In this document: positions 13,996 to 62,807 of the stretch, piece after piece | How the letters are laid out: every line of letters begins with the position of its first letter | Position numbering within the stretch: the stretch's first letter is position 1 | Assembly: GCA_965199495.1 (NCBI GenBank) | Contig: CBDASK010000003.1 | Span: forward strand, 704,001-768,000 | DNA length: 64,000 bases | DNA from: Abditibacterium sp. | GTDB taxonomy: Bacteria; Armatimonadota; Abditibacteriia; Abditibacteriales; Abditibacteriaceae | Reading direction: 5' to 3' | The notes under the pieces: generated by a model | Database searches by the model: none | What the model was told of the DNA's origin: nothing | Seen by the model: only the letters and a program-made list of their open reading frames with translations | Made by a program: the position numbers and the translations under genes

Positions 13996-14083
13996 GTAAC
14001 AACAGTTAAGGCGCCTTGTTTCGATGGCGGTGAGTGGCATAAAATTGTCCTATAGCCCTTCATAGTGGAAAGGCTACAACGGT

Positions 14084-14154
14084 GGGGCTGACGCCTCCTT
14101 CCAATCGGCGGACTTTCCTCGCTCTTAGACCGATTGGAAGGGTGCGTCAGCCCC
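14084..14154. repeat. Palindromic repeat, family GGGGCTGACGCACCCTTCCAATCGG
   Basis: Inverted arms; related copies at 22369, 28176 and 62033. Confidence 0.85.
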
Positions 14155-14202
14155 GCTCTCGGAAATGTAGCTTTCTGTTTAGGAAGGACTATATTTTAGA
14201 AA

Positions 14203-21894: not shown

Positions 21895-23082
21895 TCAGGG
21901 AAAAACGTCCGCAAAGCCCGCGATAATTCGTTCCAAATCGGCTTCGTTCCAACTCGCGTTGCTGGTCAGGCGCAAGCGTGCGCGCTTGACCGTCGGTGGA
22001 CGAACCGCCGGACACCATAAGTTGCGCTCCAACAATCGCGCCGACAGTTGCAACGCGGTTTCGCTACTTTGGGCGAAAACGGGTAAAATCGGCGAAATTT
22101 GCGGCGCAACATCGTATCCTAAGGCGCTAAGTTCACGATACAGCCACGCCGCGTTGGTGCGGCATTTTTGGACGTGTTCCGGCTCATTTTGGATGATGCG
22201 CAACGCCTGCAATGCCGCGCCAACGGCGGGCGGATTAAGGCCGGTCGAATAGACGAAACTGCGTGCGGCACCGACCAAATAATCGATCAAAACGCGCGGG
22301 CCGCAGACGAAACCGCCCTGACTGCCCAACGCTTTGGAAAGTGTGCCGAGTGTGACGATATTTCGAGAGCGGGGCTGACGCACCCTTCCAATCGGCGGGA
22401 GTTCTTCCAAAGTAGATTGATTGGAAGGGTGCGTCAGCCCCGCCTCGATTTTAAAATACTCTGCCGTCCCGCGCCCGCCCGCGCCCAAAGTTCCTGTCCC
22501 ATGCGCGTCGTCCAAAATTATAATCGCATCGAATTCGTGCCCCAATTCGACAATGGCGGGTAAATCGCACAAATCGCCGTCCATCGAGAAAACGCCATCG
22601 CAAACGATCAGCTTGCGCCCGGCGTGGCTGCTGGCCAAGAGCGCGCGTAATTTCTCGTTTGATTCCCAAAATCGCGTCGGAGATTTCGCCAATGCGCACG
22701 CATCCAATAGCGACGCGTGATTGCGCTTATGACAAAACAGCGCCGTTTCGTGGTTGCAAAGCGCCGTAATCACGCCGATGTTGGCGGCGTAACCCGACGA
22801 AAAAACGAGCGCCGCTTCGCAATTTTTAAATCTCGCCAATTCGCTTTCGAGTTCTTCGACCAACTCATAATGCCCCGAAACCAACCGCGAGGCGCGCGCG
22901 CCCGCGCCAAACTTCGCCGCCGCAGATTGCGCCGCTTCAATGACGCGCGGATGGACGGCCAAACCGAGATAATCGTTGGACGCCAAATCGAGCGCGCCGT
23001 CGGGCACGCGCCGCAGTTCGCGCGTCAAATGCGCGGCGGCGCGTTTGTCGAGTTCGCGTTGGAGTTCGTGCCAGAGTTTCAT
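21895..23082 (-). CDS. bioF: 8-amino-7-oxononanoate synthase carrying an in-frame palindrome insertion
   Basis: LASNDYLGL, GARASRLVSG, NHASLLD, DGVFSMDGD, DDAHG and PLP-lysine motif GTLSKALG. Start at 23082 overlaps the upstream stop. Confidence 0.92.
   Translation of the reverse strand: MKLWHELQRELDKRAAAHLTRELRRVPDGALDLASNDYLGLAVHPRVIEAAQSAAAKFGAGARASRLVSGHYELVEELESELARFKNCEAALVFSSGYAANIGVITALCNHETALFCHKRNHASLLDACALAKSPTRFWESNEKLRALLASSHAGRKLIVCDGVFSMDGDLCDLPAIVELGHEFDAIIILDDAHGTGTLGAGGRGTAEYFKIEAGLTHPSNQSTLEELPPIGRVRQPRSRNIVTLGTLSKALGSQGGFVCGPRVLIDYLVGAARSFVYSTGLNPPAVGAALQALRIIQNEPEHVQKCRTNAAWLYRELSALGYDVAPQISPILPVFAQSSETALQLSARLLERNLWCPAVRPPTVKRARLRLTSNASWNEADLERIIAGFADVFP
22369..22443. 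repeat. Intragenic palindromic repeat (75 bp) inside bioF
   Basis: GCGGGGCTGACGCACCCTTCCAATC...GATTGGAAGGGTGCGTCAGCCCCGC; same family as 14084 and 28176. Confidence 0.9.
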
Positions 23083-28175: not shown

Positions 28176-28295
28176 ACAGATTCACGCTTTGAGGGGAGCG
28201 GGGCTAACGCACCCTTCCAATCGGCATGAGGCCGAGGAAAGTCCCCCCGATTGGAAGGGTGCGTTAGCCCCGCTCCCCTCAAGGCGTGAATCTGT
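28176..28295. repeat. Palindromic repeat with extended inverted flanks
   Basis: ACAGATTCACGCTTTGAGGGGAGCGGGGCTAACGCACCCTTCCAATCGG and its inverse ending GCGTGAATCTGT. Confidence 0.88.
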
Positions 28296-28331
28296 AAATA
28301 GATACTGTGTTGGCCGTCAAGAGTTTTGGCG

Positions 28332-29336
28332 TTAATTTTTCAGCCCCTGCGCACAAAACTCGGCATCGAAGGGCTGACCGGACTTGAGCACGCCATAGGC
28401 CAACACCAGCAACTTGCGCATCGCAGCACCCAAGATCAGCATTTTACACTTGCCAGCCTGGGTCAAACGTTGCTTCAACTCGCTAATCACGGGATTGCAG
28501 CGCAGTGCCGTCATCGCCGGATAAAAGAGCGCTTTGCGCAGACGCGGCGAACCGACCTTAGACAGGCGCGGCTTGCCGCGCACGCTCGAACCCGATTCGC
28601 GCAAACACGGCGCTAATCCGGCAAACGCCGCGACCTGGCGCGCGTTCTCGAACTGCGCGATCTCGCCCAACTCGGCCAGGATCAATGCGGCTGTGGCCGC
28701 AGCGATGCCAGGAATCGAGCAGAGCAAACGCACGGATTCGTTCAACTCAGGATGCGCCTGGATGTGCTCTTTGATCTGGTCTTTGGTCGCCCCGATCTCC
28801 CGTTCGAGATAGTCGATGTGAGAGCGCAACGAGTGTTGAACGACCTCACAGGAGGTCACTTCCAGGCGGTTGGCTTCCATCTGCTTCATCTCCTGGAGCG
28901 TCTCGATGCGGCGCACCAGAGCTTGCAGATGCTCGATCTCCGGCGCGGGCGCCTTCCAGGGCGCGGGCCGGTGCAAAGCGCAAAAGCGGGCGATGAGTTG
29001 CGCATCGGCTTTGTCGGTTTTGGTGCGCTTGAGCTGGCTTTTGGCAAAGGCACGCACGGCAGCGGGGTTCACAACCGAGACAAGATGCCCGGCTTGGTGG
29101 AGCGCGCGCGCAAGGGCATCGCCGTAGATGCCGGTGGCTTCTAAACACGCGTGAAGCGTGGGCGCGGATGTGGGCGCTTCTGCACTGGTAGAAGGCAGCT
29201 CTTGCAACCAGTCGAGCAGAAGTTGATGGCCTTGCTCTGTGTTGGCGAAGACTTTGTGGCGCGTTTTGGCGGCGTCTGGGGTGGACAGAAACGCGGCATC
29301 GAGAGTCGCTTTGGAAACGTCTATTCCTAAAAACAT
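28332..29336 (-). CDS. IS110 family transposase (bridge recombinase)
   Basis: DEDD residues in GIDVSK, LEATG and KTDKAD; SIPGI; AFAGLAP..RESGSS (catalytic Ser); GAGGAG SD upstream of ATG at 29336. Confidence 0.95.
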   Translation of the reverse strand: MFLGIDVSKATLDAAFLSTPDAAKTRHKVFANTEQGHQLLLDWLQELPSTSAEAPTSAPTLHACLEATGIYGDALARALHQAGHLVSVVNPAAVRAFAKSQLKRTKTDKADAQLIARFCALHRPAPWKAPAPEIEHLQALVRRIETLQEMKQMEANRLEVTSCEVVQHSLRSHIDYLEREIGATKDQIKEHIQAHPELNESVRLLCSIPGIAAATAALILAELGEIAQFENARQVAAFAGLAPCLRESGSSVRGKPRLSKVGSPRLRKALFYPAMTALRCNPVISELKQRLTQAGKCKMLILGAAMRKLLVLAYGVLKSGQPFDAEFCAQGLKN

Positions 29337-29368
29337 GAGATTCTCCTCAAACAAAGGGAAACCGAGGG

Positions 29369-29547
29369 GTTCTTGTTTTTATCTTGCAGCCAGCCTTGTC
29401 AATGCGAACTCTGTTGCAAGTCACAACTCGCAACGGCTCAAGATACTGTCCGGCTTGAAAAGACAAAAAAGAACAGGGACAAGAGGCGCAATTCTATCCA
29501 ACAGCTTGCAAGCAGCTCAGGCTCTTATCGGCGTCACTCTTGCCCCT
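29369..29547 (-). ncRNA. Bridge RNA with target-binding and donor-binding loops
   Basis: Stem AGGGGCAAGAG/CTCTTGTCCCT encloses TAAGAGCCT and GGATAG (target guides). A second stem encloses ACAGTATCT and ACAAG (donor guides) around the hairpin GTTGCGAGT-TGTG-ACTTGCAAC. Confidence 0.85.
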
Positions 29548-29566
29548 ACTATTAACATACAAGGCT

Positions 29567-29623
29567 CTTAATCAAAGTTTCATCAAAATCTAATCGAACG
29601 TTAATTTACCCGGCTTAACATTG
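29567..29623 (+). promoter_or_regulatory. Putative Pho box array upstream of pstS
   Basis: CTTAATC, TTTCATC, TCTAATC, GTTAATT at exact 11-bp spacing (29567, 29578, 29589, 29600), then GGCTTAACATTG. Confidence 0.6.
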
Positions 29624-29648: not shown

Positions 29649-30683
29649 ATGAACAAATCTTTCTTTTCGGGCGCATCGTTGCGCCAGCGTCTTTTAACGA
29701 CCGGTGCCGTTGCGCTTACTCTGCCGTTTTTGGCACCCACCGCTCAGGCGCAAAACCTGAATGGCGCGGGCGCGACTTTTCCGGTCGCGATTTACACCAA
29801 GTGGTTCGATGTCTACGCCAAACAGACTGGCGTGCAAATCAATTATCAAGCGGTTGGTTCGGGCGCGGGCATCAAACAGCTCAAAGCCAACACGGTAGAT
29901 TTCGCCGGTTCAGACGCGCCGCTTTCCAACGCCGATCTGGCCGGAATGCCCGGCAAAGTCCTGCAAATCCCGACGGTCGCCGGTTCGGTCGCCGTGGCTT
30001 ATAACGTGAAAGGTCTGGGTTCGGGCTTGAGGTTGAGCGGCCCGGTGTTAGCCGATATTTTCGCGGGCAAAATCACCAAATGGAATGCGCCGCAAATCGC
30101 CGCGCTCAACGCGGGCAGAGCGCTTCCAGCGACCGGCATCAGCATCGCGCACCGCGCCGATGGTTCAGGCACCACCAATATTTTCACCTCTTATTTGAGC
30201 GCGGTTTCTCCTTCGTGGAAAGCGCAATTGGGCGCGGGCAAAACCGTGAGCTGGCCCGTCGGATTGGGTGGTAAAGGCAATGATGGAGTTGCCGCGATTA
30301 TCAAGCAGGGCAACGGCACCGTCGGCTATGTCGAACTGGCTTACGCTTCGCAAAACCATTTGACGGTCGCCGCGATGCGCAATAAATCGGGCAAATTCGT
30401 GATGCCATCGGTCGCCGCGACGACCGCCGCCGCGCAGGGCGCCGCCAAAGCCACCGCCAAAGACCCGCGCGCGCCGATCTTCAATCAGGGCGGCAACGCG
30501 TATCCTATCGCGGGCTACACATTTTTGATGTATTACGCGGGCAACAAAAATACCGCCAACGGCAAACAGCTCACTCGTTTTCTCAACTGGGCGATGGGTT
30601 CGGGCCAAAATTACGCCGCCGGTTTGCTTTATGCGCCCCTCCCCAAAGCCGTCGTCGCGAGCAACAAAAGCCGTCTGCGTTAA
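29649..30683 (+). CDS. pstS: Phosphate ABC transporter substrate-binding protein (Sec signal peptide)
   Basis: GAGATFP, GSGAGI, DFAGSD, HRADGSGTT, GKGNDGV, YAPLP. Confidence 0.95.
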   Translation: MNKSFFSGASLRQRLLTTGAVALTLPFLAPTAQAQNLNGAGATFPVAIYTKWFDVYAKQTGVQINYQAVGSGAGIKQLKANTVDFAGSDAPLSNADLAGMPGKVLQIPTVAGSVAVAYNVKGLGSGLRLSGPVLADIFAGKITKWNAPQIAALNAGRALPATGISIAHRADGSGTTNIFTSYLSAVSPSWKAQLGAGKTVSWPVGLGGKGNDGVAAIIKQGNGTVGYVELAYASQNHLTVAAMRNKSGKFVMPSVAATTAAAQGAAKATAKDPRAPIFNQGGNAYPIAGYTFLMYYAGNKNTANGKQLTRFLNWAMGSGQNYAAGLLYAPLPKAVVASNKSRLR

Positions 30684-30806: not shown

Positions 30807-30861
30807 TGTTGTCTCCCTGTGGTTCGCGGCGAAAATGTCGTCCGAACTTTTTAAAATCAAC

Positions 30862-31911
30862 ATGAAAAATATGCTATCTTTGAGCGTCGCCGGACTTGCG
30901 CTCTCCTTTGCTCTGGTCGGTTGCGGCGGCAAATCAGCCACCGGCACGACGGGCGCCGCGTCGAGCGTCAAACTCAACGCGGCGGGCGCGACGTTCCCCT
31001 ACCAAATTTACACAAAATGGTTCGACGATTATAAAACCAAAACCGGCGTCGAGATCAATTATCAATCGGTCGGTTCGGGCGCGGGCATCAAACAGCTCAA
31101 AGCCCAGACGGTGGATTTCGCCGGTTCCGATGCGCCGCTCAAAGACAAAGATATGAAAGAGATGCCGTCGGAAGTCGTGCAATTTCCGTCGGTTGGCGGC
31201 GCGGTCGTCGTGGCTTATAGCGTCAAGGGCGCGCCCGCCGATTTGAAGTTGGACGGGCCAACTGTTGCCAAGATTTTCATGGGCACCATTACCAAATGGA
31301 ACGATCCGGCCATCGCCGCCGATAATCCCGGCGCGACATTGCCCGCGACGAGCATCAACACCGCGCACCGCTCCGATGGTTCGGGCACCACCAACATTTT
31401 CACGACTTATCTGTCGCAGATTTCGCCCGAATGGAAAGGCAAACTGGGCGCGGGCAAAACCGTGGATTGGCCCGTTGGCGTCGGCGGCAAAGGCAACGAT
31501 GGCGTCACCAGCGCCATTCAGCAGGGCGACGGCGGCATCGGTTATATCGAGCTGGCCTACGCGATGCAAAATAAACTCAACGTCGCTTCGGTCAAAAACG
31601 CGGCGGGCAAATTCGTCAAACCTTCGGTCGAGACCACGACGAGCGCCATCGAAGGCGCCCTCCCGCTCGTGCAAAAGGACATCACCGCGCCGATTTCCAA
31701 CGCGCCCGGCGACGCGGCTTACCCGATTTCGGCGCTGACCTACCTGCTGGTTTATAAGAAAGGTCAAAACCCGGATCAGACCAAAGCGACGGCTGACTTC
31801 CTGAAATGGGCGATGACCGACGGCCAGCCCGAAGCCGCCAAATTGAATTACGCGCCGCTTCCTAAAGCCCTCGTTGACATCAACATGAAAGCGATTGCTG
31901 AATTAAAATAA
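30862..31911 (+). CDS. pstS: Phosphate ABC transporter substrate-binding lipoprotein
   Basis: Lipobox LVGC; AGATFP, DFAGSD, HRSDGSGTT. Start could be at 30835. Confidence 0.93.
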   Translation: MKNMLSLSVAGLALSFALVGCGGKSATGTTGAASSVKLNAAGATFPYQIYTKWFDDYKTKTGVEINYQSVGSGAGIKQLKAQTVDFAGSDAPLKDKDMKEMPSEVVQFPSVGGAVVVAYSVKGAPADLKLDGPTVAKIFMGTITKWNDPAIAADNPGATLPATSINTAHRSDGSGTTNIFTTYLSQISPEWKGKLGAGKTVDWPVGVGGKGNDGVTSAIQQGDGGIGYIELAYAMQNKLNVASVKNAAGKFVKPSVETTTSAIEGALPLVQKDITAPISNAPGDAAYPISALTYLLVYKKGQNPDQTKATADFLKWAMTDGQPEAAKLNYAPLPKALVDINMKAIAELK

Positions 31912-62032: not shown

Positions 62033-62108
62033 TTGGCGGGGCTTGCGCCTCCTTCCAATCGGATGTTCTCTTCGCACCAAGATTAGAAGAGGGCGCAAGC
62101 CCCGCCAA
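62033..62108. repeat. Diverged copy of the GGGGCT..CCTTCCAATCGG palindrome
   Basis: TTGGCGGGGCTTGCGCCTCCTTCCAATC ... GGCGCAAGCCCCGCCAA. Confidence 0.75.
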
Positions 62109-62162: not shown

Positions 62163-62807
62163 ATGACTATCAATATTATCGGATCGGGCGCAATTATTCC
62201 TCCAAAAGGCGCTTTATCCGTTGGCGCCATCGAGCGCGCGAATTATCCGCTATCGCCCAAAACTTATCTCGACCGCGCCAGCGAATTAGCGTTATGCGCG
62301 GCTTCGCTGGCGCTGCAAAACGCGAGTTTAAGCGGCCCGCTCGGCGCGGATTGCGGGTTGTCCATCGGCACGCAATTCGGCTCGGTCGAGACGATGCGCG
62401 TTTTCGAGGAAAAACTAAATCAAAGCGGCGCGCGCGGCGCCTCGCCGCTCTTGTTTTCGCATTCGTATTTCAACGCGGCAGCGGCATTAATTGCCATCGA
62501 ATGGGGCATTAGCGGGCATCACGCGCCGTTTTGCGGGCGCGACAGCTCGTGGCAAGCCGTCGAAGCCGCGCGCGATGCGATTACGTTGGGCCACGCGCAA
62601 ACGATGTTGTGCGGCGGCGTCGAAGCCGATTCGACGGCACGCGGTTGGGCGGGCGAAAACCAAAGCGGCGAAGGCGCGCTGTTCGTGGTTTTGCAGCGCG
62701 ATGGTGCGGGGCCAACTTTCGAGGAATTTTGGCAAACGCCACGCGCCATCGAAGGCGATTGGGGCGCGTTGGGTTCGCTGCTGGCGCGCTGGAAACCCGC
62801 ATCATGA
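62163..62807 (+). CDS. Truncated ketosynthase-N-domain protein (chain-length-factor-like)
   Basis: LDRASELAL, GLSIGTQFG, ASPLLFSHSYFNAAA, LCGGVE. No xACxS motif and no C-terminal His motifs. Confidence 0.72.
   Translation: MTINIIGSGAIIPPKGALSVGAIERANYPLSPKTYLDRASELALCAASLALQNASLSGPLGADCGLSIGTQFGSVETMRVFEEKLNQSGARGASPLLFSHSYFNAAAALIAIEWGISGHHAPFCGRDSSWQAVEAARDAITLGHAQTMLCGGVEADSTARGWAGENQSGEGALFVVLQRDGAGPTFEEFWQTPRAIEGDWGALGSLLARWKPAS

Follow-up and report, generated by a model that had tools for sequence, protein, structure and literature searches.

A predicted bridge-RNA-guided insertion sequence of the IS110 group, IS621 type, in an Abditibacterium genome

Results

Boundaries and recombinase of the element

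The window analysed here, a stretch of 64,000 nucleotides from Abditibacterium sp. (contig CBDASK010000003.1, positions 704,001 to 768,000), carries on its minus strand an IS110-family element of 1,262 bp, at 28300-29561, with a CT core at each side. The element is very probably an autonomous insertion sequence (IS) of the IS110 group and of the IS621 type, guided by a bridge RNA encoded in its left end. This reading is carried by the boundaries of the element, a second copy in the same genome, an empty orthologous site in a congener, the matches between the guides and the DNA, the covariation of the guides with the flanks, a conserved RNA skeleton, and the homology and catalytic residues of the encoded protein. 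All coordinates of the element refer to the minus-strand reading and were indexed by script.

The left target half TAAGAGC and the left CT core (29563-29562) occupy 29562-29570, and the identical nine bases flank the second copy. The left non-coding end (LE), which encodes the predicted bridge RNA, spans 225 nt (29337-29561; 227 nt with the core) and opens with TGTATG (TGTATGTTAATAG) at 29561. It is far longer than the right non-coding end (RE), which has 30 nt, lies with the right CT core (28301-28300) at 28300-28331 and closes with ACAGTAT-CT at 28308-28300; the flank beyond it, ATTTAC (28294-28299), reads as the right target half. Excision of the element together with one CT gives TAAGAGC-CT-ATTT, and joining of its ends gives ACAGTAT-CT-TGTAT. 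CT cores at both boundaries, insertion that leaves no scar, a lack of terminal inverted repeats at the ends, and a bridge RNA in a long LE are all features of the IS110 group.

Between the two ends lies the recombinase gene (28332-29336, minus strand; 334 aa), which starts at an ATG at 29336 and stops at a TAA at 28334-28332. This ATG was chosen over an upstream TTG because GAGGAG precedes it; relatives likewise show an ATG and a similar ribosome-binding site. The minimum-energy fold places a small hairpin (29339-29363, minus strand) over this Shine-Dalgarno sequence (29348-29343), and this predicted hairpin may restrain translation of the recombinase. The protein contains the Pfam domains DEDD_Tnp_IS110 (PF01548; E 4.1e-23, with 82.3 bits where the cut-off is 29) and Transposase_20 (PF02371; E 8.9e-26), and over residues 2-326 it aligns with the solved structures of IS621 (8wt6_A, E 2e-72) and ISCro4 (9t56_A, E 9.3e-71). 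Its residues D6, E66, D108, D111 and S248 align with D11, E60, D102, D105 and S241 of IS621 (the chain numbering is offset by two), which are named as the composite active site in the description by Hiraizumi et al. 2024 (PMC11208158). S248 lies within RESGSS and aligns with the serine of YESGSS in IS621. From its sequence, the element is supported as intact.

Two internal loops carry guides for the target and the donor

The minimum-energy fold of the LE has a free energy of -73 kcal/mol (z = -2.64), and 2 of 200 shuffled sequences folded as well. It consists of two stem-loop domains with internal loops, 29547-29475 and 29474-29369, followed by the small third hairpin described above. The first domain is the predicted target-binding stem-loop (TBL; 29475-29547, minus strand), whose stems are kept by compensatory changes in the relatives from two other genomes of the family, G012 and G003. 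The second is the predicted donor-binding stem-loop (DBL; 29369-29474, minus strand), whose inner hairpin shows compensatory changes both among the G012 copies and in distant relatives.

As in other members of the IS110 group, four guides that include the core lie in the two internal loops, with matches of 9, 8, 9 and 5(+2) bases. The left target guide (LTG) in the TBL loop, UAAGAGCCU (DNA TAAGAGCCT; 29519-29527), equals the left flank plus core of both copies at 9 of 9 positions. On the other side of this loop, the right target guide (RTG), UUGGAUAG (29494-29501), extends from GGATAG (29499-29494); its reverse complement CTATCCAA equals the core and right flank of the second copy at 8 of 8 positions, and with CTATTTA at the copy in the window it forms five Watson-Crick pairs, two of which lie past two G-T wobbles. 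In the DBL loop, the left donor guide (LDG), ACAGUAUCU (DNA ACAGTATCT; 29441-29449), equals the right end plus core at 9 of 9 positions. The right donor guide (RDG), AUUGACAAG (29395-29403), is discontiguous: ACAAG (29399-29395) complements CTTGT, AU complements the next AT of the left end, and UG is looped out. This pattern of nine bases on seven is the one published for IS621 (PMC11208160; PMC11208158), and in the strand rules given in the same two papers each loop's 5' side pairs with the bottom strand, the 3' side with the top strand, and the core is part of all four guides.

Most of this layout had been proposed from the letters of the window in the initial annotation, and it stood up in detail. 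Every coordinate given there for the CT-core boundaries, the restored target and the donor junction was correct on re-reading; the DEDD residues and the catalytic serine said to be kept do align with the active site of IS621; the fold gave exactly the limits proposed for the two stems with internal loops (29547-29369); and all four guides were correctly placed, with the target in the window matching at 11 of 11 positions before two G-T wobbles.

A second copy and an empty orthologous site

The genome (4.81 Mb in three contigs) holds exactly two copies of the element, with 100% identity across 1275 and 1273 of 1275 bases, and these are the only two PF01548 matches in it. In the run containing the window, the IS contig had a depth of 50.4, compared with 21-25 for its flanks, which is what two copies would produce. 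Copy 2 is placed between ...TAAGAGC-CT and CT-ATCCAAATAGG, with a CT core on both sides, and its target TAAGAGCCTATCCAA (TAAGAGC-CT-ATCCAA) is matched by the guides at 15 of 15 bases. At the target of the window copy, the 11 matched bases and two wobbles are followed by one more pair.

At the orthologous locus of the congener G012 (79% identical over 520 bases) we found an uninterrupted site, ttgatTAAGAACCTATTTgg / TAAGAACCTATTT, with one CT and no element. Its left part reads TAAGAACCT and its right part ...CCTATTTGG, and it equals the predicted excision product with one mismatch. The orthologous locus of a further genome, G006, is 91% identical; its intergenic DNA differs and has no element, palindrome or target. 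For copy 2, the orthologous locus in G012 is unrelated intergenic DNA without a target. In a contig from another metagenome, X2, position 28200 is joined to 29566, and 42 other letters replace the IS and part of the adjoining palindrome, an allele that is not readable as an exact empty site. X2 also holds, at low depth, a variant of the element of about 98-99% identity, with an 18-base insertion in the gene (window position 28941) and with C in place of U as the last LDG base (window position 29441), as in the G012 and G003 relatives.

A conserved RNA skeleton in the left end

The consensus fold of five close sequences has 55 pairs, 13 of them with a compensatory change. In a rough alignment of eight distant relatives 12 pairs survive, all 12 with a compensatory change, and these are the pairs of the LTG-RTG hairpin, the closing stem of the donor loop, and the LDG-RDG hairpin. 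A covariance model (R1) built from the eight distant relatives, none of them from the family of the host, gave a single match on both strands of the 64 kb, at 29381-29561 on the minus strand (59.6 bits, E 8.7e-16). A scan with Rfam 15 matched no bridge-RNA family; its six weak matches (E 0.1-5.5) lay on the palindrome and other DNA and were dismissed as chance.

The 5' stem-loop in IS621's bridge RNA (177 nt) has no counterpart here: positions 14-61 of R1 are deleted in the match, and the LE passes from the predicted -10 box directly into the TBL stem, as it also does in relatives from Chloroflexi and Anaerolineae that have no 5' stem-loop either. In IS621 this stem-loop (nucleotides 1-33) is present in the RNA and, according to the structural description (PMC11208158), invisible in the cryo-electron microscopy map; since it is not seen in the structure, it is probably not essential.

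The guides change with the flanks of each element

Twelve of the 27 genomes of the family, the host included, have a DNA match to the element; G012 carries five full-length copies at 69-70% identity and G003 one at 64%. Contigs from GTDB added 12 more distant loci (best protein identity 51%), and the plasmid search gave 2,579 records, all below 60% (best 49.2%), of which five loci were fetched. One fetched relative, on a plasmid of Deinococcus aetherius (L041), has a second, different IS110-family gene (1-241 of the fetched sequence) that ends about 260 bp upstream of it, so that this plasmid carries two IS110-family elements, either adjacent or one within the other. In a set of 5.8 billion protein clusters the sequence was found once, and its nearest relative is 70% identical and unnamed. 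As many as 7,395 of 8,000 scored protein candidates pass E 1e-30, and one relative of 62% identity is labelled Abditibacteriaceae. Because so many candidates pass while the nearest is 70% identical and unnamed, the clade of the element is, judged from these sequences, large but metagenomic.

In all compared elements the donor ends follow (A/G)C(A/G)G(T/A)AT-CT-TGTAT, and the target guides vary together with the flanks. In G012 the left flank is GGTGTCT-CT and the loop UGGUGUCUCU, and the RTG UUGUAG faces CT-ACAAAA (two copies), CT-ACAGGG (one copy) or CT-ACG (two copies). In G003 the left flank TTAGAGC-CT goes with the loop UGAGAGCCU, and the RTG GAAGACAG with CT-GTCTTC. A Leptolyngbyales metagenome-assembled genome has TTTTGTCCT as left flank and LTG, with the RTG GUACAG against CT-GTAC, and a Leptolyngbya plasmid has CACGGCT as left flank and LTG, with UAUGAAG against CT-TCATA. 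The five G012 copies form two subtypes, and compensatory changes distinguish the donor-loop hairpins of the two.

The longest exact match between guide and flank was scored blindly, with one representative for each of 11 element types. The LTG matched its own flank over 8.1 bases on average (range 5-13; 11 types), compared with 3.9 for non-cognate flanks, where the maximum of 7 was reached twice in 110 pairs. For the RTG the means were 6.0 (10 types) and 4.14 (100 non-cognate pairs). L027 was dropped from the RTG count because its contig stops one base past the core, and a relative on a Salmonella plasmid (L042), for which no right end was found within 200 nt after the stop codon, entered none of the counts.

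A predicted split promoter at the joint and the proposed cycle

Consensus matching predicts a promoter split between the two ends of the element, with a -35 box TTGACG in the RE (28315-28320, minus strand) and a -10 box TATGTT in the LE (29554-29559, minus strand). In the joined ends TTGACG stands 17 nt from TATGTT, so the predicted promoter forms only on circularisation, and a -35 box of at least 4/6 at the 17-nt spacing is kept in 9 of the 11 element types. In the linear form, between 28150 and 29700, no promoter-like (sigma-70-like) site was detected by the rule of the scan. Circularisation is described as reconstituting the bridge-RNA promoter of IS621 (PMC11208160), and integrated copies of IS621 are reported to express the bridge RNA only weakly and yet to excise (PMC13626964). 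The combination of a joint promoter with a linear form that has none fits the circularisation scheme published for IS621.

By analogy with IS621, we infer the following cycle, in which transcription from the joint promoter, the circle, the chemistry of the tetramer and activity at the present day are all carried over from that element. On leaving its site the element would form a circle closed at the CT core, which would set the -35 box of the right end at its distance from the -10 box of the left end. The joint promoter would then drive synthesis of a bridge RNA, about 175-180 nt long with its start near 29547, and after it of the recombinase message. In the first stem-loop the internal loop would read the target, and in the second the joined ends, via ACAGUAUCU and AUUGACAAG, and a tetramer of the DEDD/serine recombinase would exchange strands at the CT cores. 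The circle would thereby insert without duplication beyond the core, and its preferred site, TAAGAGC-CT-ATCCAA, would be the end of a palindromic repeat that resembles a miniature inverted-repeat transposable element (MITE) or a repetitive extragenic palindromic (REP) sequence.

The palindromic repeat at the insertion sites

Both copies of the element adjoin a copy of a palindromic, GC-rich repeat some 74 bp long (core GGGGCTGACGCACCCTTCCAATC plus its complement), which blastn of the repeat unit placed at 86 sites in the chromosome. The repeat is REP-like and was intergenic at the places inspected. By the same search the window holds copies at 14081-14156, 22369-22447, 28190-28283 and 62035-62106, of which the one at 28190-28283 (C3:732190-732283) adjoins the insertion and shows its hairpin in the sequence. 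A few copies measure about 160 bp and carry outer inverted arms, about 20 bp in length, of the form T(T/A)AG(A/T)GCCTATCC.AATAGG (C3:1876714-1876895, 1936314-1936468, 62483-62641 and 3811051-3811203), and from their sequence these long copies look like a small MITE. The target defined by the guides is the tip of the arm of this long repeat; copy 2 sits in one such arm, and the best free target site in the genome, TAAGAGCCTATGC, lies at the end of another repeat copy. A different palindromic repeat (...TTTAGACACGATAAATCGGTGTCT) has all five G012 copies (L003, L014, L020, L023 and L025) at its 3' foot. IS621 and further IS110 members are described as known to home to repeated palindromes (PMC11208160).

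On the other side of the element stand two tandem genes for PstS-like (phosphate-binding) proteins, at 29649-30683 and 30835-31911. The element lies 86 bp upstream of the first gene and is oriented away from both. Since G006 and G012 have no element in this intergenic region, expression of that first gene may differ between strains.

Discussion

Taken together, these results agree with the earlier proposal that the element has the bridge-RNA architecture of IS621: the second copy, the empty site of the congener, the covariation of guides and flanks and the covariance model all point the same way. The checks on sequence that the initial annotation had named also came out in its favour, as the model from distant relatives matched the predicted RNA (29369-29547) and nothing else in the window, and the search for other copies and empty sites gave an identical copy in a site matched by the guides and the uninterrupted orthologous site in G012. 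Its description of the element as probably uncharacterised is fair in view of the unnamed nearest protein, 70% identical among 5.8 billion. The phrase "naturally reprogrammed" is true of this element and overstated as a distinction, as every IS110 element is so.

Several observations weigh against this reading, or against parts of it. The right target of the window copy matches its guide only partly, and the RTG did no better than background in 3 of the 10 types (L029, L030 and L043, with 3, 3 and 4 exact bases), although for L029 and L043 a match of 6/7 with one mismatch appears when they are read by eye. The 13 compensatory pairs of the close sequences derive from only three independent lineages. 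The -35 box fails in 2 of the 11 types (3/6 in L040 and 2/6 in L043). No exact 13-base target remains in the genome, where further transposition is thus not visible, and the case for activity of the element is drawn from sequence. The assembled contigs of four runs showed no RE-LE joint of a circle, although rare forms drop out of such contigs.

Three other readings have to be weighed with these points in mind. That the guide-like matches are chance, or leftover target DNA copied into the left end, we regard as extremely improbable. Sequence matches by themselves cannot prove an RNA, and when the LE was shuffled 200,000 times the target 9-mer did arise 143 times and the donor 9-mer 153 times, about 0.07% each; the two arose together in none of them, however, and the matching positions are homologous across the 11 types, change with the flank of each element, and lie in internal loops framed by covarying helices. 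It is also unlikely that the copy, though recent, is now inert, with a bridge RNA or recombinase that is not made or not functional in the host. Such a state would agree with the missing sigma-70-like site in the linear form, with an RNA that has no 5' stem-loop, and with a genome that holds only two copies. Yet a recent jump is indicated by two copies whose frames are open and which show 100% identity across about 1.27 kb; IS621 is reported to excise despite weak expression from integrated loci (PMC13626964); and the 5' stem-loop is described as invisible in the structure of IS621 itself (PMC11208158) and is missing from the Chloroflexi and Anaerolineae relatives too.

More room must be left for the idea that RNA pairing is not the sole basis of target choice, and that the DNA hairpin of the neighbouring palindrome is a second determinant read by the protein, as for ISPpu10, although we still hold it to be somewhat improbable. 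Both copies adjoin the 86-member palindrome, for the G012 relatives the insertion site is the 3' foot of a different one, and a preprint (10.64898/2026.03.19.712850) reports the target stem-loop of ISPpu10 as an added gate of specificity. Against this, the distance from core to hairpin differs between the two copies (roughly 27 and 40 nt), the side of the hairpin differs (right here, 5' in ISPpu10), and guide pairing itself accounts for both sites. A role of the hairpin would in any case add to guidance by a bridge RNA, which is the reading we prefer, and not replace it.

The mechanism, the layout of the RNA and the reading of guides from flanks have been in print since 2024, and the element is one more clean example of a kind of system already known. 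It shows the familiar homing of IS110 elements to repeated palindromes in a little-studied bacterial group and opens no new question. Its interest is practical, as bridge recombinases are under development as programmable tools for DNA insertion, excision and inversion, and orthologues are being screened for activity and specificity. For such a screen it is a clean candidate, apparently intact, with two identical copies, exact boundaries and an RNA without the 5' stem-loop; one of its two natural sites shows readable pairing across 15 bp, and the orthologous empty site is at hand. More tentatively, in a reading that we hold to be somewhat improbable, the element may stand for a large, mostly metagenomic clade (proteins in the hundreds, with 58-70% identity, of which one is labelled Abditibacteriaceae) in which a pared-down bridge RNA, with no 5' stem-loop, an 8-nt RTG and a 9-nt LDG, reads a 15-bp target, possibly in co-evolution with a palindromic MITE-like repeat that serves as landing pad and offers a DNA hairpin as second gate. 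If this were true, the pared-down RNA could give a recombinase more specific than that of IS621.

Comparison with known systems

The closest model is IS621 of E. coli (Durrant et al. 2024, PMC11208160; Hiraizumi et al. 2024, PMC11208158; structures 8wt6-8wt9), with which we compared the element through alignment to the protein of the solved structures and through the descriptions published in these two papers. The two share the order of domains, the DEDD residues and the serine, the CT core at both boundaries, a long left and a short right end, and a promoter split across the joint. They also share the two stem-loops with LTG and RTG in one internal loop and LDG and RDG in the other, the nine-on-seven RDG, and insertion beside palindromic repeats. 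Judged by position, the bases that follow the RDG of this element (G and C) would complement target positions 7 and 6, as the handshake guides of IS621 do.

The differences from IS621 are variations of degree. Protein identity is about 45%, a figure taken from E. coli plasmid relatives and not from IS621 itself, and blastn against E. coli genomes gave no match to the element. Its target is TAAGAGCCTAT(CCAA), whereas that of IS621 is ATCAGGCCTAC; it lacks the 5' stem-loop; its RTG has up to 8 nt, compared with 4; and its LDG matches both core bases (9 nt), whereas that of IS621 pairs 8 (A123-C130). Judged from the fold of this element alone, its donor loop seems to have a longer outer stem.

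Among other relatives, ISCro4 (9t56) belongs to the same family and has the same length, with the alignment over residues 2-326 given above, and differs in host and guides. The name ISCro4 is taken from PMC13626964, and the element is described, as IS622, as having been used for rearrangement of the human genome (10.1101/2025.05.14.653916). The G012 and G003 relatives, at 64-70% DNA identity over their full length, have the same donor ends (ACAGTAT-CT-TGTATGTT) and the same RNA layout without a 5' stem-loop, but differ in their targets (GGTGTCT-CT-ACAA in G012, TTAGAGC-CT-GTCTTC in G003), in the target guides that go with them, and in the last LDG base, which is C and not U. The RDG of G012, AUUUGCAAG, spells the RDG of IS621 as we read it from the residue names in PMC11208158. 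The IS1111 group and its seekRNA (IS4321/IS5075) have a recombinase of the same family that is likewise RNA-guided and lands in terminal repeats of other mobile DNA, the targets of IS4321/IS5075 being transposon terminal repeats (cited in PMC11208160). In that group, however, the RNA lies in the right end and the subterminal inverted repeats are long, whereas the element described here carries its predicted RNA in the left end and has a right end of 30 nt.

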